Source: Candidatus Falkowbacteria bacterium (GTDB lineage: Bacteria; Patescibacteriota; Patescibacteriia; CAIXNZ01). Taken from it: 64,000 nucleotides of DNA. Below, piece after piece: positions 23,346 to 62,100 of this stretch. The position numbers were made by a program, and so were the translations under genes. Under the pieces are notes generated by a model, which had not been told where the DNA came from, searched no databases, and saw only the letters and a program-made list of their open reading frames with translations. The stretch lies in assembly GCA_963774955.1 (NCBI GenBank), contig CAVZGV010000003.1, positions 256,771 through 320,770 of the forward strand. The letters run 5' to 3'. Position 1 is the first letter of the stretch, and every line of letters starts with the position of its first letter.

Positions 23346-23353
23346 TGTTATTT

Positions 23354-27584: not shown

Positions 27585-28067
27585 ATGGTTAGTAGTGAAA
27601 AGGATCGTCCTGACAGTAATTTGCCGGTTGAAAAACGGCAAGCTCCCAGAAAGGTTGTTCCAGCAAGCGAACGGTTTTCCGTTGTTTTGGGACAACCAGA
27701 TGGTACTTTTAAACCGCCTAGAGAAGTCAGCAGGAAAATACCGACTGAAGCTCTGAATGCAAGATTACTTGCGGCCCAAAATGCCAATTGCACCATAGTG
27801 GATATTTCAGAAATTGGTCTGCGCATTTGCCACAGCGTCAACTTGAATGAGGGCGAAACCGTCGGAATTTTTTTTCAGATTTTTTTAGGACTACCCAACG
27901 AAGAGAAAGGCATTACGTTGATCTGTCAGGTGATTTGGCATAAACCATGGAAAGCCGCTAAGGGCTTGGGCCATTTGACCGGCTTAAACATCATTCACAA
28001 TTCAGACGACGTAAGCTACAAGCAATTTGTAGCCAGCCTACCAACTTTAGCACAAGCCCGCGCCTAG
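27585..28067 (+). CDS. Putative PilZ-domain (c-di-GMP-binding) protein
   Basis: An RxxxR motif (RQAPR) is followed by DxSxxG (DISEIG) ~50 aa later. AGGAGGG SD. A TGCTATAAT promoter sits at 27475-27483. The spacing between the motifs is longer than canonical. Confidence 0.4.
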   Translation: MVSSEKDRPDSNLPVEKRQAPRKVVPASERFSVVLGQPDGTFKPPREVSRKIPTEALNARLLAAQNANCTIVDISEIGLRICHSVNLNEGETVGIFFQIFLGLPNEEKGITLICQVIWHKPWKAAKGLGHLTGLNIIHNSDDVSYKQFVASLPTLAQARA

Positions 28068-36577: not shown

Positions 36578-36633
36578 ATATGATATGGCCAATTTTAGCT
36601 AAGGATGCTATAATTAAAAAGTAATAAATATAC

Positions 36634-44264: not shown

Positions 44265-44428
44265 TACTGGAACGAAAACTGGATTTAGTGTATTTCGTTA
44301 TAACTTTATAATTCATTTATCCAATATTAAAAGCTCCCATTATTGTGGTTGGAGGAGTTTTTATATTGGCGATTTTTATTTTGGCTAGTTTTAGCCAGAT
44401 GATATAATAAAATTGTAATCAAAGACAC

Positions 44429-47400
44429 ATGCTGAACCCAAGGAAAATCAGACAAAATATGTTTTTCTTGAAATTTTTTAGTTTTAAAACTAAGCTCATT
44501 TTGAGTTTGGTTTTTGTTTTAATTATTGTAGTTACTTTGGGTTATAATTATTTTCAATCTGTTAACGCGGAAAATGTGTCGTTTACTGAAACATTCTCCA
44601 CACTTGCTAATAAAGATGTTAATATCACAACCGGCAAATGGGATACGGTTTTGGGGCTAGCGAGATTGCTGGGTAAAGACTGGGTTAATATGGCGGAAAC
44701 AAAAGATGGCTTAGAAACCATTAGTTCCAGTGGTATCAATTACATTTACGACGTTGAATATGATTCAGCGGGCAATCCTTATATAGTGGGTATAGATAAA
44801 AGTAGGGGCAGAAATTTGCCGTTTTTTGTCAAATGGACGCCCAGTATGGGCTGGACCAATATGGCAGAAACAATTGCAGGCCAGGAAATTTTATATGATA
44901 CGGGATTTTCTGCGTCTTCCCCAGAACTTGCTTTAGATAGTAATGATAATCCCTATCTTATCTGGGGTCAGCTTATTCCACCGTCTGGATCTGAAGCGGA
45001 CATCTTTTTTACTAAATGGTCGCCCTCTGCCTGCGGCGGAGCAGGTTGTTGGACAAATATGGCGGGAACAACCGCTGGTCCGGAAGAAATTGCGCATAAC
45101 GGCTATCGTTATAATATTGTGAATGATATTAAAATTGATTCCAGCAATTATCCCCAAGTGCTTTATAGTCTTGATATGACAGGATCAAATATTCATGATT
45201 TGTTTTTTTCCAGATGGAATGGCGCAAGCTGGACCAAAGCTAATGGTATTGACGCTGACAGTGATCCTGCGACTTATGAAAGTGATAATATTACTAACAC
45301 TCCTGCTGCTGATGATCAATTGGCTGGTTTAAATTTAGTTAATGATAATCCTTATGTCGCTTGGTATGGCTTTTCAAATACAGATGTACTTTTTAGCAAA
45401 TGGACTCCCGGGTTAGGTTTGTGCGCTGATCCCGTGGGTTGCTGGACAAATATGCAGGAAACAATTTTAGGGCCGGAAAAGGTTGATCAGCCAAATGTCG
45501 TAGGTTACCCAGGCACTTATTTTTCCGCACCAAAAAATAATTTTAAAATCGCTACCGACAATAATGTTTATATTAGCTGGTCTTATGAGACTCCTGCGGC
45601 TGTACCCGGCCAGCCACTAGACGTTTATATCAGAAAAGGCATAGCAGGTGTTGGTTGGAGTCAGATTGATAATTCTCCCGGCTATACAAATGTTTCTAAT
45701 AGTGCCCTTGACAATTCAAATTTAAAGGGTTTTTCACTGGATTCAGCTAATAATCCTAATGTTATCTGGGGGGAAAGACCTGGCGGATGGGGTGGTACAA
45801 ATAACGATGTCTATTTTGCTCGTTGGAATGGTTCTTCTTGGGTAAAAATGGATGGTACTCCGGCTCCAGAAAATATAACGAATTCAGCAGATACTATTAC
45901 AGCGCCTGAATTTATTGTTTTAGATTCTTTTAATACGCCCTATGTTTTGTATTATGAATCAAGCGGAAGACAGCTAAAAAAATGGAGCGGTTCAATCTGG
46001 GGGAAGATGGATGGTAGTGCCGGATATGAATTATTAACCCCTCCTTCTGTAGCTGTAAGATCTTTGGATATAATTAACAGCAATCCTCAGTTTATCGGTG
46101 ATAATAACGTTGTCGAATCAGCATATTTTAGTAAATATCTACCGACATATAATACTACTTCAACTATTCAGTCAGTAAATGTTAGTACCGCCGGTACGGA
46201 TTTTATCAAGAGCGCAGCTTTAACCGCGAACCAAACACTTAACGGCCAAAATATTATTTATTCAATTTCAAATGATGGCGGTGCGACTTGGACAATTGTG
46301 CCAGGTACGGGCACTCTGTTAGATTTTAGTACTGCTGGCAATGATTTACGCTGGAAGGCAGATTTGCAAGGAACTTCTTCGGTTACGCCGATAATTAATG
46401 ATTTATCTCTTAGTTATCAGACCAGAAAAATCACTTGTAGTCTGACCCCAAACTCAGTTTTACAGGGACAGTCGGTGACTATTTCCGCAAGCACTGGTTT
46501 TGCGGCTCCGAAGGTCTGGGCAACTGTGGAAAAAGACGGTTCAGTTTTAAGTACCGTAGATCTTGTCGGTGGGCCTAATAATTGGAGTTATCAGTTTCCG
46601 ACTGGTAGCCAGAATTTTGGGCAAAATGATGTGGCCGTGTTTACTACAGATGGAACTGATACCTTTGTCTGCAATCCTTCAACAGGCGCTGATTGGCAGA
46701 TGATGACCAAGGAAGATATTCCCTGGGATAGGCGGTATACTCATAGTGCTGTTTCGTTTAATAATCGTTTGTTTGTTATGGGTGGGATAACTGATCGTAA
46801 TCAGAATGATATCTGGTATTCAGCTGACAATGGAGTCAATTGGACCGGTCCGGCCACAGCCGCCTGGAGTCCCAGAAGCTATTTTGGTTTGGTTAATTTT
46901 CAAGGTCAATTGTGGCTATTGGGTGGGTCATATATGGAAGACACTGCTAATGATGTCCCGAGTACTACTACTTATAATGATATTTGGGTTTCTAGTAATG
47001 GCCTTAATTGGACTCCAAGCACTCCTGCAAATGCGCCATGGATCGGACGTTTAGGTTTTGGGTCTACGGTTTATGATGGCAAAATTTGGATAGCGGGAGG
47101 TTATGATTATTTGTCCGCTACTTATATGAATGATGTTTGGTCTTTTGATGGTACAACCTGGGTAAATGAAACCACTCTTCCGACCGGACGTTATGGGCTG
47201 CAATTGGCTGCTTGGGATGAAGATGGAAGCGGACTAGAACCTGAAAAATTATGGGTTATTGCCGGCCGTAGTACAGGCGGTGTGAGGGAAGAAGATGTTC
47301 ATTCTTATGATACTATTTCTGGCTGGAATTGTGTTGCCGGTCCAGTCGCTTATGGTTGTCCGGCCGCTTCAATTCCTGCTTGGGGAGCGCCTCCAGTCGT

Positions 47401-50400
47401 TGGTGATGGCAGACTTTTTCACCAAGTGCTTATTTATAATGATCCCAACGACGCTTTAGATACCCCAAATATGTATTTAATGGGTGGGCAGACAGTATTT
47501 TCAGGCGAATATAATTTTAATGATGTTTGGGTTACTACGACTGCAGATGCCAAGCCTGGCGCTGATTGGAATTTGGTAGTTGATCCGGATGATTATTATC
47601 CATATACAGATCCGCCAACTTTACCGCAACAATGGACGAGTTGGAGCGGACGACGCAATTTTGCGGCTACTATTCATGATGGAAAAATGTGGGTTTTGGG
47701 TGGCTATGGAATTACTACCCGTTCAACCTGGAATGATGTTTGGTACTCTGATAACGGAAATGACTGGAATCTTGTAGGAGAAAATTATGGGGGTATTTTT
47801 CAGAAGCGTTGGGGTACTCAGCTTACTCATCTAGATCCTGATGGCCCTTTAGGACCTATTCCTGATAAATTATTTATTTTAGGAGGGACTACAGGCGCAG
47901 TCGGCAGTACTAATGATGTTTGGTCATCTGTAAATGGCACTGATTGGACCTTAGAATTGTATTCAGACCCTTATGATATTCCTACTCCCACGCGTTGGCT
48001 GCCGCGTAATGCACATCAGGTAGTAACATATAATAATAATTTATATCTGGTCGGGGGTTGTAGTCAGGGCGGTTCTTTTTGTTACGGTTATTGTTCGATT
48101 ACCAAAAAACGCTGTACGAATGACATTTTAATACCCGCAATCGCAGCAGTTAATTGTGATTCTGTAACTGAAGGTATATGTCTGCCGGGTAATTTTAATG
48201 ATGTTTGGTCGTCACCAGATGGTGTCAGCTGGAATTTGGTGACTGATACTCCTGCCTGGGAAGGTAGATATTATCCTACGGTATCAGTTTTTGATGATGG
48301 CACAGGCGAAAAAATTTGGATGCTGGGCGGCCAAGGGTGGCGTCGTTGTATCGGCGGAGTAGAAGATGGCGCTGTTTGTGATAAAAATGCAAGTTGCGAC
48401 AGTAATGTTTGTTCTCGCATTTGCTATGGAGGCGATAGAAAAGGTTTAAGTTGTACTACAGATGCAAATTGTCCGGCCTCGGTTTGCGCCGGCGGGCAAC
48501 CGAGTGTAGACGCTTATAGATTTTTAAAAGATGTTTGGTTTACATCCGATGGTAGTGTCTGGTATTCTGGTTTTTGTACTGGCGGTGCTAATGCTGGCGC
48601 TGCTTGTAATAAAAACAGTGATTGTGCCAGCTTGGTATGTACAGCTAATAAGGCTGCGTGGTCAGCGAGGAATGGTCATAGTTCGGTTGCTTATAACGAC
48701 GGTTCAGGTGAAAAATTGTATGTTATGGGTGGTTGGGATTCAAGCCCTGCCAGCAGTTTAAATGATGTCTGGTCAACTTCGGATGGCAAAAATTGGTCAC
48801 AAATTGCTTTACTTGATGAACCAGGCTGGCTTAGACGTTATACTCATCAAATATATAATTATGATGATAAAATATTTTTACTTGGGGGCAACACCTTTAG
48901 AACCTCGGCTCCGAATAGGAATTTGCTACCAGCTTTATGGACGGATGAGGTTTGGACATCGGTTACCGGCAATGGCAGTGATTGGACTCCTGTTACCACT
49001 GATGCTCCATGGCGCGGTCGTGATTTTTTTAGTAGTACTATTTTTAATAATCGAATGTGGTTAACAGGTGGCGATTCATCAACCTCAGCTATGAATGATG
49101 TCTGGGCCAGTACATATGATTATAGCAGTATGAATTTCACAGTCAGTACGCCGCCCGGTTCAACCGGTTCAAATTGTACAGATACTAAACCTGAAGATCC
49201 AGGAGATGTTGTGGCCCCGACTTTACCCTGTGTCGCTACTAGCTCGGCAGAGATTGACTGGAATTTTGTGGATAATGCGGCCTGTGAAATGGGATACAGG
49301 CTTTATGACGCTACTACAGATATCAGAATGAAATATGTAGAACAGCCGAATCTGAGCACAATCGAAGAAACAGGATTAGCCACCAATATCCAATACAGCC
49401 GCTATGTCACAGCATATAATGCAGCCGGTGAATCAGGAGCGACTAGCCCAGCCAGCTGCTATACCCTGGCCAAAGTGCCAAATAAGCCGATAATATTGAG
49501 CGCCAATGAAAATGAAATAATATTGCAAATTGATCCCAATGACGGGAATCCTCCAGGCACAGAATATGAAATCAAGGAATTATTGACTAACCAATTTGTT
49601 CAGGCCGATGGGACCTTTGGAACCGTAGAAACCTGGCAGACTTATGCTGCTTGGGGAGGCGACAGCGGATTAGCAGTGATTGGTGAATTGCCAGCAGCAG
49701 AACAACCGCTCTATGAGGAACCATCTCAACAGCCGGATTTGAATGCCGCTTTTCATATTAGTTTAACCGCCGGCCAGAATTATAGTTTTGTTGTGCAGGC
49801 GAAAAACGGCGACGGGATCCTGACTGGATTTTCTCCGGCCACGGGCAGTACTTCAGGCCCAACCGGACCTGCTCCCGTATTAGCACCGATAATAACAGCC
49901 GCTAAAGGCGTGGCTATTAATTTAGTCAGAAACAGTAATTATAACGTAAATATTTTTGCCGCTGCCCTGGCTGAAAGCGGCTTTGGCTTTAATGCCAATA
50001 CCAGTAAGACAGAAAGTCTGCTGCGGGAATTTTCATTGATTTTAAACCTGCTGATCCTGATATTGCTGGGCTTTTTGTCAGGCAGTATCATCAGCTCCTT
50101 CAGCCATCTGGGCAAAGATTTAAACTGGCAAAAAAGACTGAAACTACTGGGACAGATGTTTGTGAAAGAGCCGGCAGTAATGTTCAGCGAGCAGGCGCAG
50201 CCTGATAAAAACGGGATTTACCAGATATCATTTGAAAAACACAAGCAAAGCCAGCTCAATGCGCAAAAACACGTCAAACGAGCTTTGGGTTTAATTGCCA
50301 TTAAAGCCGTAGTTTTGGTCACGCTTTTAACCGGCTTGGCCGGAGTCAATCATTTGGGCAAAGCGCAAACAGCGCCGTATGACCAGAGCGGCACAGCAGT

Positions 50401-52087
50401 GAATGTGGGCGATAAGCTGAGCTATATAATTGAAATCAGCAATTCAGGTACAGCCGCGGCCAATGACGCAGTAGTTATGGATACGATAGACAGCAATCTG
50501 GAAAATTTTACAGTTACCGGAATAATTAATTGTGGTACATATACTGACAAGTCAACAGCAACAGTTTTAAACGTAGACGGAGTTGATGTGGCCGAGGCAT
50601 CAACCTGTGTCATTACCTATACAGCGAAAGTAAAAACAGGCACAGAAGGAAATACCATTACCAATCAGGCTTTGGCCTTGGGTCCAGACTTTGCCACAGT
50701 GACAACGAATATAACCATTAATAGTATAAATGCTGCGCCAGCATTAGTTTGCGGGAATAATAAAATTGATCCGGGTGAACAATGTGATCCGACAGGTTGT
50801 GCCAGTGATGAACGTTGTGTTTCTTGCCGTTGCCAGCCAATCCCGCCCACACCGGTTTGCGGTAACAACATAGTGGAAACAGGGGAACAGTGCGATAATA
50901 CTGCCTGCGGAGCAGATCAGATATGCAGTAATTGCGCTTGCCAATCCGTTATCCCGCCAATCCCGCCAGTAATCCCGCCGCCAGTCACACCACCAGGAAC
51001 TCTACCGCCAGGAACTTTACCACCAGGCACCCCGCCGGGCACTTTACCACCATCGACACCTCCGGGCATACCGTTAATTACGCCGATAATCAGTTCAATT
51101 TCAGGCGCTATAGACCAAATATTGCCGGAACAGTTAAAGGCAATTTTGGATAATCCGCAAGTTGAACAAACGAGCCAGAATATTGTGACGCCGATACTTT
51201 TAGCCTTGGCGCTATTAAATACAGTGCCATTAATATTGGCTTTGAGTATTTACCTGTTGCCGTATCTGCATCTGCTTTTCCTGGAGCCGTTATTAATTTT
51301 GTTCGGCAAGAAGAGGAAAAAGTGGGGCGTAGTTTACAATGCTTTAACCAAAATACCAATAGATTTAGCTTTGGTCAGATTGTACCGTAAAAATGATAAT
51401 ATGCTGGTGCAGACGAGGGTCACGGATAAGGAAGGCAGATATATCATCATTGCCAAAGAACCCGGTAAATATTATCTGAGCGTAACCAAACCGGGATTTA
51501 TCAGCCCGACCAGGTATCTGAGAGATGAAAATCAAGATACAAAATATCTGGATCTGTATCACGGTGAAGTGATTGAAGTGACAGAAAAAGATGCGGTCAT
51601 CACCGCCAATATCCCGTTGGATCCAGCGGAAAAGATGGTTTTACCGATAAAAGAGGTTGTCAGAAGTTATCTGCTCAAGAACTTAAGATTAATTATTTCC
51701 TATATCGGGATGGTCCTGGCTTTGCTGATAGTGATTATTTATCCCACAGTAATAACCATTGGAGCTTTGATTTTGCATGTTATTTTGTTCTTGATTTTCC
51801 GCAGAATGATAGTGCCGGCCAAGCCCAAACGCTGGGGCATTGTTTATGATGCCGAAAACAAGGCGCCATTACATCAGGCTATTGTCAGAATCTTTGATAC
51901 CAGATTTAATAAATTGCTGGAAACCCAGGTGACTGACCGCAATGGCCGCTATGCCTTTTTGGTGGGTAAAAATGAATACCAGCTGTTGACTGAAAAAGAA
52001 GGTTACAAACCCAAAGAAGTTAAGCCTGTTGACCTGGTTAAAAATGAGGAGATTGTCAATCTGGATGTTGGCTTAAATAGAATTTAA
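44429..52087 (+). CDS. Giant cell-surface protein, paralog 2 (2552 aa), same architecture as paralog 1
   Basis: Continuous ORF. The N-terminus (MLNPRKIRQNMFFLKFFSFKTKLILSLVFVLII) is nearly identical to paralog 1. Kelch/Asp-box blades with CxxxGxxCxxxxDCxSxxC loops. The FN3/DUF11/Cys-repeat/Pro-linker/TM/CarbopepD_reg C-terminal module is present. TGATATAAT sits at 44400-44408. Confidence 0.9.
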   Translation: MLNPRKIRQNMFFLKFFSFKTKLILSLVFVLIIVVTLGYNYFQSVNAENVSFTETFSTLANKDVNITTGKWDTVLGLARLLGKDWVNMAETKDGLETISSSGINYIYDVEYDSAGNPYIVGIDKSRGRNLPFFVKWTPSMGWTNMAETIAGQEILYDTGFSASSPELALDSNDNPYLIWGQLIPPSGSEADIFFTKWSPSACGGAGCWTNMAGTTAGPEEIAHNGYRYNIVNDIKIDSSNYPQVLYSLDMTGSNIHDLFFSRWNGASWTKANGIDADSDPATYESDNITNTPAADDQLAGLNLVNDNPYVAWYGFSNTDVLFSKWTPGLGLCADPVGCWTNMQETILGPEKVDQPNVVGYPGTYFSAPKNNFKIATDNNVYISWSYETPAAVPGQPLDVYIRKGIAGVGWSQIDNSPGYTNVSNSALDNSNLKGFSLDSANNPNVIWGERPGGWGGTNNDVYFARWNGSSWVKMDGTPAPENITNSADTITAPEFIVLDSFNTPYVLYYESSGRQLKKWSGSIWGKMDGSAGYELLTPPSVAVRSLDIINSNPQFIGDNNVVESAYFSKYLPTYNTTSTIQSVNVSTAGTDFIKSAALTANQTLNGQNIIYSISNDGGATWTIVPGTGTLLDFSTAGNDLRWKADLQGTSSVTPIINDLSLSYQTRKITCSLTPNSVLQGQSVTISASTGFAAPKVWATVEKDGSVLSTVDLVGGPNNWSYQFPTGSQNFGQNDVAVFTTDGTDTFVCNPSTGADWQMMTKEDIPWDRRYTHSAVSFNNRLFVMGGITDRNQNDIWYSADNGVNWTGPATAAWSPRSYFGLVNFQGQLWLLGGSYMEDTANDVPSTTTYNDIWVSSNGLNWTPSTPANAPWIGRLGFGSTVYDGKIWIAGGYDYLSATYMNDVWSFDGTTWVNETTLPTGRYGLQLAAWDEDGSGLEPEKLWVIAGRSTGGVREEDVHSYDTISGWNCVAGPVAYGCPAASIPAWGAPPVVGDGRLFHQVLIYNDPNDALDTPNMYLMGGQTVFSGEYNFNDVWVTTTADAKPGADWNLVVDPDDYYPYTDPPTLPQQWTSWSGRRNFAATIHDGKMWVLGGYGITTRSTWNDVWYSDNGNDWNLVGENYGGIFQKRWGTQLTHLDPDGPLGPIPDKLFILGGTTGAVGSTNDVWSSVNGTDWTLELYSDPYDIPTPTRWLPRNAHQVVTYNNNLYLVGGCSQGGSFCYGYCSITKKRCTNDILIPAIAAVNCDSVTEGICLPGNFNDVWSSPDGVSWNLVTDTPAWEGRYYPTVSVFDDGTGEKIWMLGGQGWRRCIGGVEDGAVCDKNASCDSNVCSRICYGGDRKGLSCTTDANCPASVCAGGQPSVDAYRFLKDVWFTSDGSVWYSGFCTGGANAGAACNKNSDCASLVCTANKAAWSARNGHSSVAYNDGSGEKLYVMGGWDSSPASSLNDVWSTSDGKNWSQIALLDEPGWLRRYTHQIYNYDDKIFLLGGNTFRTSAPNRNLLPALWTDEVWTSVTGNGSDWTPVTTDAPWRGRDFFSSTIFNNRMWLTGGDSSTSAMNDVWASTYDYSSMNFTVSTPPGSTGSNCTDTKPEDPGDVVAPTLPCVATSSAEIDWNFVDNAACEMGYRLYDATTDIRMKYVEQPNLSTIEETGLATNIQYSRYVTAYNAAGESGATSPASCYTLAKVPNKPIILSANENEIILQIDPNDGNPPGTEYEIKELLTNQFVQADGTFGTVETWQTYAAWGGDSGLAVIGELPAAEQPLYEEPSQQPDLNAAFHISLTAGQNYSFVVQAKNGDGILTGFSPATGSTSGPTGPAPVLAPIITAAKGVAINLVRNSNYNVNIFAAALAESGFGFNANTSKTESLLREFSLILNLLILILLGFLSGSIISSFSHLGKDLNWQKRLKLLGQMFVKEPAVMFSEQAQPDKNGIYQISFEKHKQSQLNAQKHVKRALGLIAIKAVVLVTLLTGLAGVNHLGKAQTAPYDQSGTAVNVGDKLSYIIEISNSGTAAANDAVVMDTIDSNLENFTVTGIINCGTYTDKSTATVLNVDGVDVAEASTCVITYTAKVKTGTEGNTITNQALALGPDFATVTTNITINSINAAPALVCGNNKIDPGEQCDPTGCASDERCVSCRCQPIPPTPVCGNNIVETGEQCDNTACGADQICSNCACQSVIPPIPPVIPPPVTPPGTLPPGTLPPGTPPGTLPPSTPPGIPLITPIISSISGAIDQILPEQLKAILDNPQVEQTSQNIVTPILLALALLNTVPLILALSIYLLPYLHLLFLEPLLILFGKKRKKWGVVYNALTKIPIDLALVRLYRKNDNMLVQTRVTDKEGRYIIIAKEPGKYYLSVTKPGFISPTRYLRDENQDTKYLDLYHGEVIEVTEKDAVITANIPLDPAEKMVLPIKEVVRSYLLKNLRLIISYIGMVLALLIVIIYPTVITIGALILHVILFLIFRRMIVPAKPKRWGIVYDAENKAPLHQAIVRIFDTRFNKLLETQVTDRNGRYAFLVGKNEYQLLTEKEGYKPKEVKPVDLVKNEEIVNLDVGLNRI
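49640..52087. repeat. ~2.4 kb 3' block of giant gene 2, near-identical (only scattered SNPs) to 56660-59099 in giant gene 3
   Basis: Long stretches are identical by direct comparison. For example, 50150-50400 equals 57170-57420. The embedded spurious track ORFs 50422..50613 and 57434..57625 are identical. Confidence 0.85.
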
Positions 52088-52112
52088 TTTTGGATAATAG
52101 TCATTATAAAAG

Positions 52113-52135
52113 CCCCTTATTTAAGGGGTTTTTTA
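52113..52135 (+). terminator. Rho-independent terminator after giant gene 2
   Basis: CCCCTTA-TT-TAAGGGG followed by TTTTTTA. A TGGTATAAT promoter sits at 52191-52199. Confidence 0.6.
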
Positions 52136-52235
52136 TCTAAGTTTAGATAAGTTTTTGTTGTTGATAACTCTACTGAATATATATAAATTGTGGTATAATA
52201 AATACAAGTAAAAATATCTAAAATTAAAGCAAATT

Positions 52236-55200
52236 ATGAATAGACTAAAAATAAAGCCATTAATTTTTTGGCGCTTTGTAAATGAAAAAGTAAAATTAAT
52301 ATTTTTAGGATTAATTTTCATTTTGTCCATAGCTACAGTTGGTTTGATAATAAAAAATATTATCAAGGCCGCTCCTGACATATATAGCGAAGATTTTACC
52401 ACTACAATTTTTTATGATCAGGAAAATACTACTGCCGATTGGTCCACCTCAATTGGCCAAGTAAGTGTTGCCAAAGAATGGGTTAAATCAGATGGCACAA
52501 AAACTTATTATGAAAATATCAGCCGGGAATTATACACTTCCAGAAATCCGGCTGTTGTTGTTAATAACAGTAATCAGCCATATATATTTTGGGAAAATGA
52601 TACGACCGGCAGTGGTAGTTATGATTATTATTTTACCCGGGGGAATTTAATTGCTGAGCCGGCTGATTGGCAGAAAATGGACGGGATTAGCGGTTGGGAA
52701 AATATTTCCAGTAATCCCGCCGGAGGTCCTGTTAATGGCAAGATGGCAATTGATTTATCTGATAAGCCTTATTTTGTCTGGCAGGAAGCAAATGACATTT
52801 TTTTTAGTTATTGGACAGGCAGTGCTTGGCGCGGCTTACAGAATCCTGCTGCCAGTTTTGATAATTTAAGCCAAAGCGCTGTTTTAGGCTATACTGCCAG
52901 TTTGCCCCAGATTAGCATTGATCAATGGGACCGCGTTTTTGTGGCTTGGCAAGGTAATACTGCTACTAGCAATGAGATTATGGTTACTATGTGGGATAAG
53001 TTAAATCCGGCAAATAGTAAATGGTCTTCAATAACTGGCAAAAATTATTGTCTGCACGGCAGCAATGACGGAACAGTTTGTACTGACAACAGCGTTTGTA
53101 CAGGCGGAGGGATTTGTGTGGGCTATGAAAATATCAGTAAAACTGATAAGAATTCTGCCAACCCCCGTTTAGCCATTGGGACAGGCTCTTTGCCTTATCC
53201 TCAACTTATTTGGATAGAAAATAACGGTACCTATAATCAAATCGTCTATAGCAAATGGACCTATTTTAGCAATACTGCTTTTTGCGGTAATTCTCAGTAT
53301 GCTTGTTGGACCAATATGGCTGGCACTGTTAAAGGTTTTGAAAATATTAGCCAGTGCGCCACTTTTAATTGTACTTATACATCAAGCGATAATTTTAAGT
53401 TGGATTCCAATGGGTTTCCTCAGCTTATTTGGCACACAGGACTTTCAAGTAATACTAGATTGAATTTTATTCATTGGGACGGCAGTCTGTGGTCTGGCAT
53501 GGCTGGTCTTCCGGGTAGGGAAATACCTGATCCGACACCAATATATAATAATGATTATAAATTGGCCATCAATCAAGATGACTATCCCCAGCTGGTCTTT
53601 TCCGCTGGTAGCACTAGGTCTGCTTTATTATTTATTCACTGGAATGGCAGCGCTTGGACCGGCATTAATAATGTGCCTGGCGTGGAGGTGGTTAGAAATT
53701 TTCCCGCCAGAGAGCCCAAAATAGTGGTTGATAATAATAATCAGGTTAATTTATTATGGTTAGATGATTCTGTTGATGATGGGCTCAATTATTTTAATGT
53801 TTATTTTACCAAAAGCAATAACAATGTTTGGACCAGATATTCAGGCAGTGGCAATTGTACTGTCGGCGGAGCGCTTTGTACCAGTGATTTTGATTGCAGC
53901 GGCAGCGGTTATTGCCAAAAAATAGGTTTTGATAATTTATCCAATACAGCCTGGAATAATAATAACCCGAATATCGCTATGGCTGAAAATGGTAATTTGT
54001 ATGTTGTTTGGTCAGCTGGTGATCTTAGTTATACTTTTAAGCCGGAAATAAACTTTACTTATTTGGACAGTGTTTCTAAAAGCTGGTCCGTACTAAGGCC
54101 CGGCGCAGAATCTACAACCACGCTTTTGGGCGAAAAACATTCTTATGCTACGAGTTTAAAAATTGCCACTAGTCCTTTGGCTCCTTATTCTCCTTATATG
54201 ATGTGGGAAGACGATTGCTCGGTTAGTCCTTATCCCACTATAAGTGATGAAAATCAGGACGATGTTTGTTTTATGCGTTGGGATGGTAATAATTGGGTTG
54301 ATATGAACGGTAATTTAGGCAATGAGGAGGTAACTGATAATTTTATAGAAAGAAGATTTTTTAGCAAATACTATAGTCCATTTAGAGGCTCTAATAATTT
54401 ATTATTTGACAGTTTGGGCAATCCTTATTTAATCTGGGTTGATCAACTGAGCGGTAGTAATAATAAGGATCTTAATTTGACCAAATGGAATGGGTCTTCT
54501 TGGGTCAATATGGATAACCAGCGGCGTTGTGTGTATGGAGTTAATGCCGGCAATGTCTGTTTGCTTGATCGCGACTGTTTTGATGATTTGGATTTAGCAG
54601 TGCCTCGCTCATTGACTGGCGACGGCCGCTGTATTTCTGACTTGTGCGACGGTGGTGTTTCGGATGGTTATGTATGCTCTAGAGACCTTGAGTGCATGGA
54701 TAAATTAAATGATGGTTATTGCACCGGTGTTGAAAATATTTCTAATGATCCGGAAGGAAATTATTTGATTACTGGCGATTATTATTCCCATCAAGCAGCT
54801 GTTATTGATTCGGCTGATAATTTATATTTAGTCTGGCCTGAAGAAACAAGTCCGGGCAATCCAGATGACATTTTTTTTACCAAATGGAACGGTTTTGCCT
54901 GGGTTAATATGGATGGCGTGACTTTGGGCAAAGAAAATATTAGTAATTCAGCTAAAGTCTCCTATAAGCCAATTATTGTTTTTGATAACTTGGCTAATCC
55001 CTATATTATCTGGCAAGAATCTCCCATTGGAACATATTTGTTAGATCCAGAAGTTTGGCTGACTCATTGGGATAGTGGCACAAATTCCTGGAAAAGCATG
55101 GATTTATCCAGCTCTATTGAGAAAATCGATGTTTTAGCCGGAGGCAGATCAACTATAAATGAAGATTCTGTGCAGTTCGATGGCAGCAATAGGCCGAATA

Positions 55201-58200
55201 TACTTTATAATTATTATGATGCATTTGGTAATTATAAAGTATTTTTTTTAAGATGGGATGGTTCTTCCTGGGTAGATATGGCTGGCACTGGCAGTTACGA
55301 TCAATTTACTAATTTTTACGATGGGCAATTAAAATTTGATAGCAGTTATAACCCCCACATTGTCATGGTTGATGAAATTAACAGATTGGTGAAATTTACT
55401 CGTTGGTTTGGCGGTCAATGGTCAACCATGGCCGGCAGTCCCGGGATAGAAACTATTATTGAAAATACCGAGCCTTATTCAGCGCCTATTTGGGAATTGG
55501 ATACCTTTGATCGGCCGCGTGTTTTTTGGATGGATGAAACTGAAGGTTATGCTATTAATGCTAGGGATGTTTTTTACACTCAGTGGAATGGAAGCGACTG
55601 GGTTGATGTTTATAATAATCCAGGTTATACCAATATAACCCATCATTATGTGGCGCCCATGTTAGATTTTGATGTGGTTAAAGACGGTAATGATAATTTG
55701 CATTTGATCAACAATAAATTCGAATATAATGTAAATTTATATTATTCCAAGTTAAGCGTGCCTACTGATTATTATCGTATTGTTCAGTCCTCCGATGTTT
55801 ACCCCGGGCCATTAACCGACATTGTTAAATCAGCTACTTTAACAACTGTAACTGATAATGCCGGCGGCAATGTGACCATTAATTACGCAGTCAGTAATGA
55901 TTATGGCAATACCTGGCTACCGGCGCCGCTGGGCACGGAGATAGTTTTTAACAGCGCTCCAACTTTGAAATGGCGGGCTTATTTGAAAACCACAAATGAA
56001 ACAATTGTCCCCACCATTAATGATTTAACAATCAATTATTCTACTTTAGCACCGCCAGTCGGTCTTTATTGCGGTGATGGTATTTGTAATAATGGAGAAA
56101 TATGTACAAGCTGTTCAGCTGATTGTGGAATTTGTCCGCCTCCGCCGATTATTCTTGTTACACCCGCTGGTACATCTGATACAATCTGTTGGGATAGTAT
56201 TCCTGAAGATCCGAGCGATGTTGTTTTGCCGGTATTACCGTGTACAGCCACAAGCCCAAGCGCCATCAGCTGGAATTTTACAGACAATGCCGTTTGTGAA
56301 GCCGGTTATCGTCTTTATGACGCTGCTACAGATATCAGAATGAAATATGTAGAACAGCCGAACCTGAGCACAATCGAAGAAACGGGCTTAGCCACCAATA
56401 TCCAATACAGCCGCTATGTCACAGCATATAACGCGGCCGGTGAATCAGGTTCAAATACAGCATTAAGCTGTTTTACCCTGGCTAAAGTGCCGAATAAGCC
56501 GATCATTTTAAGCGCCAACGAAAATGAAATAATATTGCAAATAGATCCTAATGACGGTAATCCCGTGGGTACAGAATATGAAATCAAGGAACTATTGACT
56601 AATCAATTTGTTCAAGCAGACGGAACCTTTGGCTCCGGAGAAACCTGGCAGACATATGCTGCTTGGGGCGGCGACAGCGGATTAGCAGTGATTGGTGAAT
56701 TGCCAGCAGCAGAACAACCGCTCTATGAGGAACCATCTCAACAGCCGGATTTGAATGCCGCTTTTCATATTAGTTTAACCGCCGGCCAGAATTATAGTTT
56801 TGCAGTGCAGGCCAAAAACGGCGACGGCATTCCGACAGGATTTTCTTCAGCCACAGGCAGTACTTCAGGCCCAACCGGACCTGCTCCCGTATTAGCACCG
56901 ATAATAACAGCCGCTAAAGGCGTGGCTATTAATTTAGTCAGAAACAGTAATTATAATGTCAATATTTTTGCCGCTGCCCTGGCTGAAAGCGGCTTTGGCT
57001 TTAATGCCAATACCAGTAAGACAGAAAGTCTGCTGCGGGAATTTTCATTGATTTTAAACCTGCTGATCCTGATATTGCTGGGCTTTTTGTCAGGCAGTAT
57101 CATCAGCTCCTTCAGCCATCTGGGCAAAGATTTAAACTGGCAAAAAAGACTGAAACTACTGGGACAGATGTTTGTGAAAGAGCCGGCAGTAATGTTCAGC
57201 GAGCAGGCGCAGCCTGATAAAAACGGGATTTACCAGATATCATTTGAAAAACACAAGCAAAGCCAGCTCAATGCGCAAAAACACGTCAAACGAGCTTTGG
57301 GTTTAATTGCTATTAAAGCCGTAGTTTTGGTCACGCTTTTAACCGGCTTGGCCGGAGTCAATCATTTGGGCAAAGCGCAAACAGCGCCGTATGACCAGAG
57401 CGGCACAGCAGTGAATGTTGGTGATAAGCTGAGCTATATAATTGAAATAAGCAATTCAGGTACAGCCGCGGCCAATGACGCAGTAGTTATGGATACGATA
57501 GACAGCAATCTGGAAAATTTTACAGTTACCGGAATAATTAATTGTGGTACATATACTGACAAGTCAACAGCAACAGTTTTAAACGTAGACGGAGTTGATG
57601 TGGCCGAGGCATCAACCTGTGTCATTACCTATACAGCGAAAGTAAAAACAGGCACAGAAGGCAATACTATTACAAATCAGGCTTTGGCCTTGGGTCCAGA
57701 CTTTGCCACAGTGACAACGAATATAACCATTAATAGTATAAATGCTGCGCCAGCATTAGTTTGCGGGAATAATAAATTGGATCCGGGTGAACAATGTGAT
57801 CCGACAGGTTGCGCCAGCGATGAACGCTGTGTTTCCTGCCGTTGCCAGCCAATCCCGCCCGCACCAGTCTGCGGTAACAGCATAGTAGAAACAGGGGAAC
57901 AGTGCGATAATAGTGCCTGCGGAGCAGATCAGATATGCAGTAATTGCGCTTGCCAATCCGTTATCCCGCCAATCCCGCCAGTAATCCCGCCGCCAGTCAC
58001 ACCACCAGGAACTCTACCGCCAGGAACTTTACCACCAGGCACCCCGCCGGGCACTTTACCACCATCGACACCTCCGGGCATACCGTTAATTACGCCGATA
58101 ATCAGTTCAATTTCAGGCGCTATAGACCAAATATTGCCGGAACAGTTAAAGGCAATTTTGGATAATCCGCAAGTTGAACAAACGAGCCAGAATATTGTAA

Positions 58201-59099
58201 CGCCGATACTTATAGCTTTGGCGCTATTAAATACAGTGCCTTTAATCTTGGCTTTGAGTATTTACCTGTTGCCGTATCTGCATCTGCTTTTCCTGGAGCC
58301 GTTATTAATTTTGTTCGGCAAGAAGAGGAAAAAGTGGGGCGTAGTTTACAATGCTTTAACCAAAATACCAATAGATTTAGCTTTGGTCAGATTGTACCGT
58401 AAAAATGATAATATGCTGGTGCAGACGAGGGTCACGGATAAGGAAGGCAGATATATCATCATTGCCAAAGAACCCGGTAAATATTATCTGAGCGTAACCA
58501 AACCGGGATTTATCAGCCCGACCAGATATTTGAAAGATGAAAAGCAAGATACAAAATATCTGGATCTGTATCACGGTGAAGTGATTGAAGTGACAGAAAA
58601 AGATGCGGTCATCACCGCCAATATCCCGTTGGATCCAGCGGAAAAGATGGTTTTACCGATAAAAGAGGTTGTCAGAAGTTATCTGCTCAAGAACTTAAGA
58701 TTAATTATTTCCTATATCGGGATGGTCCTGGCTTTGCTGATAGTGATTATTTATCCCACAGTAATAACCATTGGAGCTTTGATTTTGCATGTTATTTTGT
58801 TCTTGATTTTCCGCAGGATGATAGTGCCGGCCAAACCTAAACGTTGGGGCATTGTTTATGATGCCGAAAACAAGGCGCCATTACATCAGGCTATTGTCAG
58901 AATATTTGATACCAGATTTAATAAATTGCTGGAAACGCAGGTGACTGACCGTAATGGCCGCTATGCCTTTTTGGTGGGTAAAAATGAATACCAGCTGTTG
59001 ACTGAAAAAGAAGGTTACAAACCCAAAGAAGTTAAGCCTGTTGACCTGGTTAAAAATGAGGAGATTGTCAATCTGGATTTGGGGTTAAGTAAAAATTAA
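52236..59099 (+). CDS. Giant cell-surface protein, paralog 3 (2287 aa). A different N-terminal anchor and ~15 W-repeat blades replace the Kelch region; the C-terminal module is shared with paralogs 1 and 2
   Basis: Continuous ORF. Repeats of type [VI]xF[TI]xWxGxxWxxMxG run through residues ~100-1500. A CxxC-rich segment (LYCGDGICNNGEICTSCSADCGIC) precedes the conserved FN3, DUF11, Cys-repeat, Pro-linker and TM/CarbopepD_reg module. Confidence 0.9.
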   Translation: MNRLKIKPLIFWRFVNEKVKLIFLGLIFILSIATVGLIIKNIIKAAPDIYSEDFTTTIFYDQENTTADWSTSIGQVSVAKEWVKSDGTKTYYENISRELYTSRNPAVVVNNSNQPYIFWENDTTGSGSYDYYFTRGNLIAEPADWQKMDGISGWENISSNPAGGPVNGKMAIDLSDKPYFVWQEANDIFFSYWTGSAWRGLQNPAASFDNLSQSAVLGYTASLPQISIDQWDRVFVAWQGNTATSNEIMVTMWDKLNPANSKWSSITGKNYCLHGSNDGTVCTDNSVCTGGGICVGYENISKTDKNSANPRLAIGTGSLPYPQLIWIENNGTYNQIVYSKWTYFSNTAFCGNSQYACWTNMAGTVKGFENISQCATFNCTYTSSDNFKLDSNGFPQLIWHTGLSSNTRLNFIHWDGSLWSGMAGLPGREIPDPTPIYNNDYKLAINQDDYPQLVFSAGSTRSALLFIHWNGSAWTGINNVPGVEVVRNFPAREPKIVVDNNNQVNLLWLDDSVDDGLNYFNVYFTKSNNNVWTRYSGSGNCTVGGALCTSDFDCSGSGYCQKIGFDNLSNTAWNNNNPNIAMAENGNLYVVWSAGDLSYTFKPEINFTYLDSVSKSWSVLRPGAESTTTLLGEKHSYATSLKIATSPLAPYSPYMMWEDDCSVSPYPTISDENQDDVCFMRWDGNNWVDMNGNLGNEEVTDNFIERRFFSKYYSPFRGSNNLLFDSLGNPYLIWVDQLSGSNNKDLNLTKWNGSSWVNMDNQRRCVYGVNAGNVCLLDRDCFDDLDLAVPRSLTGDGRCISDLCDGGVSDGYVCSRDLECMDKLNDGYCTGVENISNDPEGNYLITGDYYSHQAAVIDSADNLYLVWPEETSPGNPDDIFFTKWNGFAWVNMDGVTLGKENISNSAKVSYKPIIVFDNLANPYIIWQESPIGTYLLDPEVWLTHWDSGTNSWKSMDLSSSIEKIDVLAGGRSTINEDSVQFDGSNRPNILYNYYDAFGNYKVFFLRWDGSSWVDMAGTGSYDQFTNFYDGQLKFDSSYNPHIVMVDEINRLVKFTRWFGGQWSTMAGSPGIETIIENTEPYSAPIWELDTFDRPRVFWMDETEGYAINARDVFYTQWNGSDWVDVYNNPGYTNITHHYVAPMLDFDVVKDGNDNLHLINNKFEYNVNLYYSKLSVPTDYYRIVQSSDVYPGPLTDIVKSATLTTVTDNAGGNVTINYAVSNDYGNTWLPAPLGTEIVFNSAPTLKWRAYLKTTNETIVPTINDLTINYSTLAPPVGLYCGDGICNNGEICTSCSADCGICPPPPIILVTPAGTSDTICWDSIPEDPSDVVLPVLPCTATSPSAISWNFTDNAVCEAGYRLYDAATDIRMKYVEQPNLSTIEETGLATNIQYSRYVTAYNAAGESGSNTALSCFTLAKVPNKPIILSANENEIILQIDPNDGNPVGTEYEIKELLTNQFVQADGTFGSGETWQTYAAWGGDSGLAVIGELPAAEQPLYEEPSQQPDLNAAFHISLTAGQNYSFAVQAKNGDGIPTGFSSATGSTSGPTGPAPVLAPIITAAKGVAINLVRNSNYNVNIFAAALAESGFGFNANTSKTESLLREFSLILNLLILILLGFLSGSIISSFSHLGKDLNWQKRLKLLGQMFVKEPAVMFSEQAQPDKNGIYQISFEKHKQSQLNAQKHVKRALGLIAIKAVVLVTLLTGLAGVNHLGKAQTAPYDQSGTAVNVGDKLSYIIEISNSGTAAANDAVVMDTIDSNLENFTVTGIINCGTYTDKSTATVLNVDGVDVAEASTCVITYTAKVKTGTEGNTITNQALALGPDFATVTTNITINSINAAPALVCGNNKLDPGEQCDPTGCASDERCVSCRCQPIPPAPVCGNSIVETGEQCDNSACGADQICSNCACQSVIPPIPPVIPPPVTPPGTLPPGTLPPGTPPGTLPPSTPPGIPLITPIISSISGAIDQILPEQLKAILDNPQVEQTSQNIVTPILIALALLNTVPLILALSIYLLPYLHLLFLEPLLILFGKKRKKWGVVYNALTKIPIDLALVRLYRKNDNMLVQTRVTDKEGRYIIIAKEPGKYYLSVTKPGFISPTRYLKDEKQDTKYLDLYHGEVIEVTEKDAVITANIPLDPAEKMVLPIKEVVRSYLLKNLRLIISYIGMVLALLIVIIYPTVITIGALILHVILFLIFRRMIVPAKPKRWGIVYDAENKAPLHQAIVRIFDTRFNKLLETQVTDRNGRYAFLVGKNEYQLLTEKEGYKPKEVKPVDLVKNEEIVNLDLGLSKN
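56660..59099. repeat. Partner copy of the ~2.4 kb near-identical 3' block (see 49640-52087)
   Basis: See the partner feature. In addition, 56460-56640 matches giant gene 1 (41563-41705) rather than gene 2, so the gene is a mosaic. Confidence 0.85.
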
Positions 59100-59110: not shown

Positions 59111-59136
59111 AGAGCCCCGCGCTGCGGGGCTTTTTT
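59111..59136 (+). terminator. Rho-independent terminator after giant gene 3
   Basis: AGCCCCGCGCTGCGGGGCTTTTTT. A TGTTATAAT promoter sits at 59158-59166. Confidence 0.65.
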
Positions 59137-59190
59137 ATATAAAATGCCTGTATTTTATGTTATAATATATAAAGAAGGATAATTGATTTA

Positions 59191-62100
59191 ATGAACGAAA
59201 ATTTGCCAAATTATATGAGATATCTAAAAAACACTTCGGTTATTGCTCTGAGTGCTATTATAGTGTTGGTCTCTATTTTTATATTTATTTTTTTTCGTTT
59301 TCAACAGTACATAATTAGGCCGGTAAAGGGGCTGCCGTTAAATAACCCGATTATTTATGAGAATATTACTGGTGAAGTATTTGCCAGCGGTGATTTTAAT
59401 AATGATAATAAAGGTGATTTGGCGACTATCAGTTCCGGGGCTTTAAAAGTTTATTTGGGGACAGGGGCCAGTGCGTTTTCCGCTCCTTTGAGTTTGAATG
59501 TCGGTATAAGCAATCTTAATGATTTGAAAACTGCGGATATAAATAATGACGGTAATTTTGATTTAATTGTTGCAGCCCAAGGCAATACTACCATGGCAAT
59601 TTTTCTTGGCGCCGGTGACGGAACTTTTACTGCTGGTAGCGGCGTTAATATCGGGCTGGTAACAAAAAGTATTACTTTGGCCGATATAAATAATGATAAT
59701 AATGTTGATTTGCTGTATTTAGCAGATAATACTGCGAAGTTTTATTCTAGGCTCGGCAATGGCGCCGGCGCTTTCCAGGCCGCAACAGAATATACAGGGG
59801 TTAGCAACCAGAAATCTATAACCAGTGCAGATTTTAATAATGATAGTTATGCGGACGTCGCGATTATCGGTAATTCAGTCCAAATATTTATAAATGACGA
59901 TAATGGCGGATTTATTGAAGGAGCCAATTATATCCAATCAGGTTCAAAAATTATTGCCGCCGATATTACCAATGATAACTTTGTAGATTTAGTTTTTGTC
60001 GGCAGTAAGGTGGTGACATTAATCAATAAAGGGAATGCTTCTTTTATCCTGGGTGAAATTTATGATGGGAGTTCTTCTGTATACATTACGGGCACATCAC
60101 TATTTACAGGTGATTATAACAACGATGGAGAAAATGACGTCGGTGTTATTTTTAGTAATAAATTGTATCTTTATTATAACCAGAGTGTTTTATATATAAC
60201 TTATTTATCCCCGCCTGGCGTCTTTGTCGGCGAATCTGCCTTTACTTTGACTGTTAATGGCAGTGGTTTTAATAGCAATTCGATTGTCAGATTTAACGGC
60301 AATAATAAAACAACTGTTTATATAAACCCGAATCAAATAGAGGCAACGATAGCCGCCGGTGATGTCAGTGAAACTAGTACTAATGATGTTACGGTCTATG
60401 ATAGCTCCAGCGGAGTAGAATCCGTCATGAGGTTTTTTTATGTTATACCTGGATTTTTTGACGCTCAAAATTTTAGTACCGGCACTCAGCCAACCTCCCT
60501 TTACACAGCAAATTTAAACGGGGATAGTTTTCCAGATTTGGCCGTGGCTAATTCGGGCAGTAATAATATTTCCATAAAACTGGGCCGCGGTGACGGCATG
60601 TTTATACCGGCTAATCCAGAGACCATTGCTGTAAATAACCAGCCGAATTCAATCGCTGGCGGAGATTTTAACGGGGATACTTATATTGATTTGGTTGTAG
60701 CCAATAAAGGTTCTGATAATTTAAGCGTATTGATGGGTAACGGCTTGGGTGGATTTACTGCGGCGACGGCTATCACAGCCGGCAGTCAGCCGGAAAAAGT
60801 CATTGTGACTGATTTTAATAATGACGATAATCTTGATCTGGCTGTTGCTTGTTCCGGCAGTAATAATATAAAAGTATTTTTAGGTAATGGCCTGGGCGGG
60901 TTTGCGCAGTCTGAAGCTGATGCTGTCGGTACTCAACCGCGATCCTTAGCTTCTGCTGATTTTAATAAAGACGGATTTAAAGATTTGGCGGTCGCTAATT
61001 ATGGTAGTACATCCATTTCAATTTTATTAGGTAATGGTAACGGTACCTTCATGGCAGCAGATCCAGCGACAATTACGACTGGCTTACAACCTATTTCAGT
61101 GGCTGACGCTGATTTTAACGGCGATAATTTTCCTGACCTAATTGTGGCTAATTACGGTGAAAATACAGTCAAGATTTTTCTTGGTGATGGCGAAGGTCAT
61201 TTTGCAGAATCAGCTGAATTAAATACTGATATTCAACCGCGGGTTGTCAGTACACAGGATTTTAACGGTGATGATATTGATGATTACGCGGTAGTAAACT
61301 ATGGCGCAAATAATATGATCATGGTTTTAGGCAATGGTGACGGTACTTTTTATTCAGCGATTAATTATGATTTGGGGACTCAACCACTAGGTATAATAAA
61401 TGGTGATTTTAATAATGATAGCAGAATAGATTTTGCGGTCGCTAATAATGGTAGTAATAATATATCCATCATTTTAAAAAGAAAAATAATTGATATTAAT
61501 ATTTTAAAGCCTGAAAATCGTTATAATGTCAATTTATGGCCTAAGGGGCTTGTAAGTGGCGATATTGATGGCGATGGTTATAAAGATTTAATGGTGGTCA
61601 ATGAAGGACCAAATACTGTTAGTCTTTTACATAATGATAGAGATGGAACGTTCACAGCCCTATCAGAATTTGACGTAGCTGATAGACCTATTGGTGTAGA
61701 TTCTGCTGATTTAAACGCAGATGGCCGTGAAGATATGGTGGTAACAACTGGTAACAGTGCTAATTATTCTGTTTTTTTAGGTAAACCAGACGGAACGTTG
61801 CCAAATGTAAAAAATTATAACCTGCCGACTTATCCAAATGGTTTCACGGCTGGTGATTTCAATGGTGACAGTATTTATGATGTCGCCGTTTCTCTACAAC
61901 CGACAGCGGAAATTGGTCAAATAGGTGTTTTTTTAGGAAATGGTGATACAAGTTTTACTGCTGGTGATACTTATACTGTAGGTAGGTGGCCGAGTGGGGT
62001 AACATCGGGTGATTTTAATAATGATAATATATTAGATGTAGCTGTCTTTAATAGTTATATTGGAAATATTTCCGTGTTGTTGGGAAATGGTGACGGAACA

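Follow-up and report, generated by a model that had tools for sequence, protein, structure and literature searches.

The giant-gene array

The 64,000-nucleotide (nt) stretch of DNA analyzed here (hereafter, the window; contig CAVZGV010000003.1 of assembly GCA_963774955.1, positions 256,771 to 320,770 of the forward strand) is bacterial DNA of approximately 40% G+C, and its nearest database relatives are annotated as Candidatus Parcubacteria. Its source is a Parcubacteria-like bacterium of the Candidate Phyla Radiation (CPR) with a tandem array of at least four giant surface-protein genes, predicted to be separately transcribed, in each of which a different ectodomain head is joined to a common C-terminal module. 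The four very long open reading frames (ORFs) lie on the same strand, are referred to here as genes 1 to 4, and close a gene order that contains PilM and a prepilin peptidase (type IV pilus), NAD-dependent DNA ligase (LigA), a PD-(D/E)XK protein, and a ribosome hibernation factor (S30AE). The 3′ ends of genes 1 to 3 form a mosaic that has probably arisen by gene conversion among these paralogs.

36634..44091, + strand, gene 1, 2485 amino acids (ORF list, Pfam, and hydrophobic segments); from N to C terminus, a signal-anchor helix, a Kelch propeller head, and a tail (fn3, central cassette with DUF11, Cys-rich repeats, Pro-rich linker, hydrophobic helices, and CarboxypepD_reg)
44429..52087, + strand, gene 2, 2552 amino acids; full-length colinear paralog of gene 1
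52236..59099, + strand, gene 3, 2287 amino acids; head unrelated at the DNA level (∼25% amino acid identity)
59200..64000, + strand, gene 4, 5′ 1600 codons, leaving the window; FG-GAP repeat head

Genes 1 and 2 are 48% identical in amino acid sequence overall and 35% in their heads, while the tails of genes 2 and 3 are 95.6% identical. In a public protein collection, the window's proteins lie on one 565,549 bp contig, where the gene 1 and gene 3 proteins are called from alternative GTG and TTG starts, respectively (P0008 and P0007). The full-length gene 4 protein (P0020) has 2736 amino acids, with 22 FG-GAP stretches matched inside the window; its C-terminal end is a low-complexity Q/N-rich extension of a kind that genes 1 to 3 do not carry. 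A first-pass annotation had described N-terminal propellers that diversify across the array, a description that suits genes 1 and 2, the only ones in which Kelch families score far over the Pfam cut-off, but not gene 3, whose head has no Kelch match in Pfam.

A near-identical 3′ block in genes 2 and 3

Comparison of genes 2 and 3 by BLASTN returned a single ungapped alignment, pairing 49258-52087 with 56270-59099 at 96.1% identity (110 mismatches in 2830 nt) and an offset of 7012 nt, with no match between the two heads. The first-pass annotation had equated 49640-52087 with 56660-59099; the near-identity holds, but the start does not, the correct partner being 56652-59099 (55 mismatches in 2448 nt, 97.75%), as compared to only 25% identity at an offset of 7020. 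Block boundaries are sharp, with identity rising from ∼50-60% to 95% at approximately 49300/56312 and dropping ∼21 nt before the stop codons; the 5′ breakpoint of the gene 3 block falls at ∼56302-56316, inside an fn3-like domain.

49300..52066, + strand, gene 2 copy of the block, likely the donor type; runs unbroken from gene 1-like sequence upstream (per-100-nt identity profile)
56312..59078, + strand, gene 3 copy of the block, likely the recipient
57777..57914 (gene 2 50765-50902), + strand, secondary mismatch cluster in which gene 3 mostly differs from the state common to genes 1 and 2; local synonymous divergence (dS) 0.28

Between 49300 and 52066, gene 2 differs from gene 3 at 91 of 2767 nt, 68 of these 91 mismatches being at third codon positions. 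The differing codons are synonymous in 62 cases and nonsynonymous in 20, and the longest perfect runs reach 350, 285, 278, and 272 nt. Mismatches previously described as scattered are clustered (index of dispersion 4.0 versus 0.96 under the null, p<2e-4). Accordingly uneven values were seen for dS between genes 2 and 3, which is 0.07 over 49643-52084 and 0.04-0.07 in the quiet parts, 0.28 in the 50765-50902 cluster, and 0.90 in a gene 1-type tract described below. The 57777..57914 cluster represents either a minor exchange in its own right or leftover older sequence, and the smaller mismatch clusters in the block suggest further micro-tracts; in several clusters, all three paralogs differ or gene 3 is unique.

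Upstream of the block, gene 2 continues smoothly into gene 1-like sequence (87% identity), and gene 3 is still homologous to genes 1 and 2 for ∼140 nt upstream of its breakpoint, recognizably so at the protein level and with 48-61% nt identity. From this low-identity homology we infer that gene 3 had its own diverged tail, which was overwritten, and thus that gene 3 is the recipient. Short minus-strand ORFs (50-68 amino acids) recur at +7012 in both copies, as had been pointed out at first pass; they do so because the DNA itself is duplicated, and their recurrence carries no information. Antisense ORFs were also considered as genes in their own right, a status for which ORFs of only 50-83 amino acids, duplicated along with the DNA, offer no support.

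A gene 1-type tract inside gene 3

The block is interrupted by a segment in which the closest paralog of gene 3 is gene 1.

56452..56641, + strand, gene 1-type tract in gene 3; core 56484-56602 identical to gene 1, edges mixing gene 3-unique and gene 1-type variants
41578..41696, + strand, gene 1 segment, the probable donor; identical to gene 3 56484-56602 and the longest exact run between genes 1 and 3 (119 nt)

Identity to gene 1 had been claimed for the whole of 56460-56640, and it extends over the 119-nt core only, 10 sites being different across the full 181 nt; the accompanying claim of more than 10 differences from gene 2 is amply correct, with 29 differing sites in that interval. Gene 1 41563-41705 and gene 3 56469-56611 have 2 mismatches in 143 nt, while gene 2 differs from gene 1 at 16 and from gene 3 at 18 of these positions; gene 2 likewise differs at 16 sites over 41565-41696, and at 16 sites opposite the 119-nt core on which genes 1 and 3 agree. 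At a local divergence of 12%, the chance of a 119-nt exact match between genes 1 and 3 is ∼2.5e-7. Variants unique to gene 3 stand 10-20 nt from gene 1-type variants at both tract edges. Since the gene 1-identical core has gene 2-like flanks, gene 3 appears to be the recipient of this tract too; were gene 1 the recipient, a second coincident event in gene 2 would be required.

Statistics of the mosaic

Genes 1, 2, and 3 were placed in a three-way alignment, and each of its 836 polymorphic sites was classed by the odd gene out. In gene 1 coordinates, genes 1 and 2 agree over 41195-41410, genes 2 and 3 over 41411-41545, and genes 1 and 3 over ∼41546-41735, after which genes 2 and 3 agree to the end with small clusters of the other patterns. 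The polymorphic sites were permuted by a Sawyer-type procedure (our own implementation rather than GENECONV; 10,000 shuffles). The longest concordant runs comprised 188 sites for genes 2 and 3, 14 for genes 1 and 3, and 13 for genes 1 and 2, each of which was reached in 0 of 10,000 shuffles (p<1e-4). These runs are significant for every pair, and divergence along the alignment is not uniform. The first-pass proposal that segment-wise switching of the closest paralog reflects gene conversion is thus supported by the site-pattern switches, by the permutation, and by an approximately 20-fold range of dS. As selection on the protein cannot give a 20-fold range of dS within one gene pair, the segments have different ancestries.

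Probable older homogenization of genes 1 and 2

Between genes 1 and 2, dS is saturated over the first 1500 (head) codons and is 0.3-0.8 in most windows of the tail, with values of 0.3-0.56 in the fn3 and Cys/Pro segments. Likeness is also found at the opposite end of the two genes.

36626..36731, + strand, 5′ homogenized segment of gene 1, pairing with gene 2 44421-44526 at 90.8% nt identity; ribosome-binding region and first 33 codons (signal-anchor)
41195..41957, + strand, gene 1 fn3 tail segment, matching gene 2 49089-49833 at 84% nt identity; dS 0.56; gene 1-gene 2 similarity starts abruptly here
41958..42850, + strand, gene 1 central cassette, divergent; two hydrophobic helices and DUF11; 39% amino acid identity to gene 2 and 50% to P0010, a protein of another genome
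42851..44196, + strand, gene 1 distal tail (Cys-rich, Pro-rich, anchor), matching gene 2 50748-52094 at 85.7% nt identity, including ∼105 nt past a premature stop in gene 1

In the 5′ segment, the third base is the same in 24 of the 29 codons that specify the same amino acid in both genes; both ends of genes 1 and 2 have therefore been homogenized. In the tail, amino acid identity between genes 1 and 2 is 87% in the fn3 segment, 94% in the Cys/Pro segment, and 89% in the anchor segment, as compared to 70, 61, and 81%, respectively, for the best outsider. The central cassette opposes its flanks, with genes 1 and 2 being 39% identical there (24-52% in a scan of tail windows), gene 1 50% identical to P0010, and gene 2 53% identical to P0001. 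Its counterparts in gene 2 (49834-50747) and gene 3 (56846-57759) are near-identical to each other, and an old divergent type of cassette is left in gene 1.

Head identity is 35% between genes 1 and 2 and 33-34% between either of them and Kelch-type heads of other genomes, while tails are 87-98% identical within the genome versus at most 82% to any outsider, the proteins compared being family members and not strict orthologs. Equal divergence of heads together with tails far closer within the genome would fit the pattern of concerted evolution. Such near-identity is not a general constraint of the module, because the anchor of gene 4 has diverged (57% amino acid identity to genes 1-3, but 81% to its ortholog in P0022 of another genome), as have two paralogs on one 83 kb contig elsewhere (P0011 and P0018, 66% identical). 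Homogenization of the anchoring module, which had been proposed for the giant paralogs at large, is accordingly strong and recent for genes 2 and 3 only, partial for gene 1, and absent from gene 4. Purifying selection alone, considered as the cause of tail likeness, is ruled out by dS for genes 2 and 3 and for parts of gene 1. G+C content at third codon positions (GC3) is 0.41-0.44 in the tails (41194-44091, 49088-52087, and 56301-59099), 0.27-0.34 in the heads, and 0.37-0.40 in housekeeping genes; the higher GC3 of tails is suggestive of GC-biased conversion or of AT drift in fast-evolving heads.

A four-way alignment and three-frame translation revealed that gene 1 lacks one base within a T/G run (44058..44070) relative to gene 2, gene 3, and the corresponding tail of the closest relative (locus L005). 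The deletion causes a frameshift and a premature stop at 44089-44091, and the displaced frame, to 44196, still encodes the conserved last 41 residues with no stop. Either the frameshift is very recent or the base was lost through a sequencing error; the identical truncation is present in the public gene call (P0008).

Probable gene conversion among the 3′ ends

Repeated exchange among the 3′ ends of genes 1-3 by non-reciprocal homologous recombination (i.e., gene conversion) is the best explanation of these observations, and one in which we have considerable confidence. At least three events would be needed. An older event would have homogenized the fn3 and Cys/Pro segments and, to a lesser degree, the anchor segment in the tails of genes 1 and 2, as well as the 5′ ends of both genes, leaving the ancient central cassette in gene 1. 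A recent event would have overwritten ∼2.8 kb of the homologous tail that gene 3 already possessed with gene 2-type sequence, from the fn3 domain to ∼21 nt before the stop codon. A third would have left the short gene 1-type patch in gene 3 (119 nt exact, up to ∼190 nt), either as a new transfer from gene 1 to gene 3 or as an exchange within an island skipped by the large event. As for the mixed edges of the tract, an older gene 3 island may have survived the large event and then taken a gene 1 patch, or the donor may have been an unsampled gene 1-like sequence. Recombination was presumably mediated by RecA; RecJ and LigA are the only enzymes of this kind noted in the window. The outcome would be a membrane-anchor module that is conserved and co-evolves, subject to strong purifying selection, with heads free to diverge. 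Conversion had been called ongoing, a term that we infer to be apt from the dS of 0.04-0.07 and the perfect runs of 270-350 nt.

Several points weigh against gene conversion, or against parts of it. Strict orthologs of genes 1, 2, and 3 were not found, and the between-genome contrast is one of family members. In the terminal anchor, dS between genes 1 and 2 is ∼1.0 and nonsynonymous divergence (dN) 0.05, and purifying selection, more than recent conversion, may be the source of the likeness there (85% nt identity). Given the gene 3-unique variants at its edges, the donor of the tract may be an unsampled gene 1-like sequence rather than gene 1. Both tail copies are known from a single assembly, and non-reciprocity and RecA dependence are presumed.

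Alternative explanations

A recent segmental duplication of the gene 2 tail, joined non-homologously to an unrelated head to create gene 3 and altered later by point mutation, would dispense with conversion. Such an origin would suit the heads of genes 2 and 3, unrelated at the DNA level, over tails that are 96% identical, and also the many heads found on one anchor module across the family, as in a domain-shuffling family. However, the ∼140 nt of low-identity homology to genes 1 and 2 upstream of the breakpoint indicates that gene 3 already had a tail, and point mutation leaves the 119-nt exact match to gene 1, the 20-fold range of dS, and the clustering of mismatches unexplained. Unequal crossing-over would also duplicate a head, which is not seen. 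We consider duplication and fusion quite unlikely.

An assembly artefact, in which paralog or strain-variant sequence was threaded into gene 3 (by a path switch at shared k-mers, or by placement of a strain variant of the gene 2 tail behind the gene 3 head), is very unlikely. The organism is uncultured, its window proteins are found on a single 565,549 bp contig for which no other assembly turned up, and a 2.8 kb repeat with perfect runs of 270-350 nt is hard for short reads; the one-base deletion in the T/G run of gene 1 resembles a sequencing error, and in the closest relative both ends of the 7 kb contig that carries the array fall within array genes. Collapse or copying of a repeat should nevertheless leave 100% identity, whereas the two copies differ at 97 sites, mostly synonymous, in frame, and free of indels, and both ORFs are intact. 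Moreover, path switching between genes 1 and 2 cannot make the gene 3-unique variants that stand 10-20 nt from gene 1-type variants.

The patches could also have come from other strains or species, taken up by transformation and integrated by homologous recombination, rather than copied between paralogs of one chromosome. Type IV pilus genes (PilM and prepilin peptidase) lie just upstream, and in Vampirococcus such pili have been tied to DNA uptake with ComEC (PMC8080830). Clusters in which all paralogs differ or gene 3 is unique point to a donor outside the window, and the gene 1 central cassette is closer to proteins of other genomes than to gene 2. In contrast, the main tracts have their best matches inside the array (gene 2 for the 2.8 kb block, and gene 1, exactly, for the 119-nt core), and the nearest external tail, that of L005, is just ∼77% identical at the nt level. 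As an account of the mosaic, import is highly improbable, although it may account for pieces for which the window offers no donor. Gene 4 was rejected as the donor of the gene 3-unique clusters, its anchor (57% amino acid identity) being too diverged for homologous exchange.

Mutagenesis by a diversity-generating retroelement was rejected, as the mismatched gene 2 bases show no adenine bias (C30, T23, G22, A22) and the changes, 53 transitions and 44 transversions, are mostly synonymous; in a search for a nearby reverse transcriptase, the sole RVT_3 match was a 135-amino acid RNase H-type protein. A programmed cassette system of the pilE/pilS or vlsE type was likewise rejected, given that genes 1-3 are complete ORFs (2287-2552 amino acids), each with a start codon and a promoter-like box, and that genes 2 and 3 have terminator-like hairpins.

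Relation to known systems

Gene conversion of this kind is a known phenomenon and mechanistically unsurprising; the host lineage is new and the genes are unusually large. The closest analog is the bab family of adhesin paralogs in H. pylori (babA/babB/babC), in which intragenomic homologous recombination makes chimeric genes whose 5′ and 3′ regions are homologous while the middle differs, the shared 3′ region being the membrane-embedded part (PMC4552749). Genes 1 and 2 similarly combine a homogenized 5′ end and 3′ tail with divergent heads. However, bab genes are ∼2 kb in length, occupy dispersed loci in a Gram-negative pathogen, and encode a β-barrel, whereas the array genes are 7-8 kb, tandem, found in a CPR bacterium, and furnished with a predicted helical transmembrane anchor. 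Furthermore, bab conversion is documented by experiment and in populations and is coupled to CT-repeat phase variation, while conversion in the array is read from sequence and no phase-variation repeats were seen there.

Bacterial paralogs that evolve in concert through gene conversion have been described in a prokaryote-wide survey (PMC6053082), at antigen and virulence-associated loci of M. tuberculosis (PMC13061034), and in rRNA operons and tuf genes. The array shares with these cases a low synonymous divergence, sharp tract boundaries, and, as judged on family members, paralogs that are closer within a genome than are related genes between genomes. Whole genes or short antigen genes are usually homogenized in such cases; here, it is the C-terminal third of giant genes, with one cassette escaping and gene 4 excluded. 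In the pilE/pilS system of Neisseria, vlsE of Borrelia, and MgPa of Mycoplasma genitalium, silent, promoterless, partial cassettes donate variable segments to one expression site. As in those systems, segmental non-reciprocal transfer would yield mosaics of surface proteins. In contrast to them, all copies in the array are complete ORFs, and the exchanged part is the conserved module rather than the variable one.

Vampirococcus lugosii has been reported to encode predicted membrane proteins of very large size that contain DUF11, integrin/FG-GAP, and fibronectin-type domains and are thought to act in host recognition and attachment (PMC8080830). These resemble the array proteins in their domain types and in the adjoining type IV pilus genes. 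The V. lugosii paper deals with a protein repertoire in a lineage different from that of the array; paralogs are absent from its full text (0 occurrences), and homogenization is not treated. A full-text literature search on gene conversion in the CPR returned nothing directly relevant. Judging from their giant counterparts in the Vampirococcus membrane (PMC8080830), the heads of the array proteins probably act in cell or host attachment.

The array is thus a probable case of concerted evolution of a membrane-anchor module under fast-diverging ectodomains in CPR/Parcubacteria, a small-genome group. General understanding of bacterial gene-family evolution is unchanged, and the main practical value is a warning for assembly and orthology work on giant CPR surface proteins. 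The first-pass remark on an assembly hazard is fair, the near-perfect direct repeat measuring 2.8 kb at a spacing of 7 kb; mis-assembly is likely at this repeat, as is genuine polymorphism through deletion or duplication. Phylogenetic trees and ortholog assignments made from the conserved tail will mislead, while the C-terminal anchor module should be useful as a marker for cataloguing candidate attachment proteins.

A further, unlikely proposition is that the homogenized 2.8 kb tail, together with the homogenized 5′ end of genes 1 and 2, persists because it serves as a recombination handle for swapping, duplicating, or deleting whole heads in the array. For example, the gene 2 head would become fused to the gene 3 tail if 7,012 bp were deleted between the direct repeats. 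If this were so, the array would be a population-level switch of the attachment-protein repertoire in a host-dependent CPR bacterium, and not a passive by-product of homology.

Architecture of the anchor module

Pfam families were assigned at gathering-score cut-offs (32.3 bits for CarboxypepD_reg, PF13620; 24.6 for DUF11, PF01345). Every tail has fn3, DUF11, and SdrD_B/SpaA-like domains along with two copies of CarboxypepD_reg; CarboxypepD_reg scores 60.5 bits in gene 2, 60.4 in gene 3, and 43.8 in gene 1, and DUF11 scores 40.1, 25.0, and 25.5 in the giant genes. The tails have six strongly hydrophobic segments, including two helix pairs, one on either side of the first CarboxypepD_reg domain, with a basic cluster after each pair. 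In the anchor module proper (gene 2 residues 2256-2552, window 51194-52087, with equivalents in genes 1 and 3), each helix pair precedes a basic cluster (KKRKK, RR..KPKR), with a CarboxypepD_reg domain coming next. The positive-inside rule would place these transthyretin-like (CarboxypepD_reg) domains in the cytoplasm, which would be unusual for that fold.

The last 323 amino acids belong to a large family, in which 958 representative proteins match at E<1e-30. These proteins range from 334 to 4463 amino acids, carry varied heads, and in nearly every case have the module at their very C terminus, and "anchoring module" is a fair name for the region; the family has no name beyond its CarboxypepD_reg Pfam matches. 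A Cys-rich unit of the tails (CGN...GEQCD) also occurs elsewhere in the window, where an ORF just 3′ of pilM (29746-30714, no Pfam match) has three tandem repeats of 126-138 nt at 30049-30438 that encode it (51-57% amino acid identity to the giant-gene tails by tblastn).

The array in related genomes

Because the syntenic loci of relatives (L006 and L009) hold a single such gene, located after LigA and S30AE and with SecA next in L006, the array is a lineage-specific expansion. Among relatives, two adjacent giant genes were found only in the closest one, L005 (GCA_026395755.1, contig JAPLYC010000044.1, 7031 bp), whose contig begins inside one tail and stops inside the fn3 region of the next gene. 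This contig suggests that such arrays tend to fragment in short-read assemblies. Breakage of the contig specifically at homogenized tails was considered and is unsupported, its two ends having just 47 nt in common at 81% identity. Nor is the next gene on L005 an ortholog, its head being merely ∼27% identical to those of genes 1 and 2. The PDDEXK_3 (PD-(D/E)XK nuclease-family) gene that lies between the LigA and S30AE genes in the window (35766-36137) is not at that position in the syntenic L006.

Transcription signals and neighboring genes

An extended −10-like TGnTATAAT box is present at a similar distance 5′ of all four giant genes (36586-36614, 44381-44408, ∼52190-52198, and ∼59160-59175), and terminator-like hairpins follow genes 2 and 3.

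52114..52136, + strand, terminator-like hairpin and T-run, 3′ of gene 2
∼52190-52198, + strand, promoter-like box TGGTATAAT, after the gene 2 hairpin and 5′ of gene 3
59115..59136, + strand, terminator-like hairpin CCCCGCGCTGCGGGG and T-run, 3′ of gene 3 (direct sequence reading)

The conserved predicted boxes suggest that each giant gene may be transcribed on its own. An Rfam scan of the whole window gave zero matches.

Elsewhere in the window, an island at 20000-28000 is richer in G+C (0.44-0.49) than its surroundings (0.36-0.40). An 833-amino acid ORF on the minus strand (20633-23134) has no Pfam match. A VIT/VWA gene (24407-27274) has a GC3 of 0.60 versus ∼0.40 in housekeeping genes, which suggests a foreign origin, and a 412-amino acid antisense ORF (25466-26704) lies inside it.

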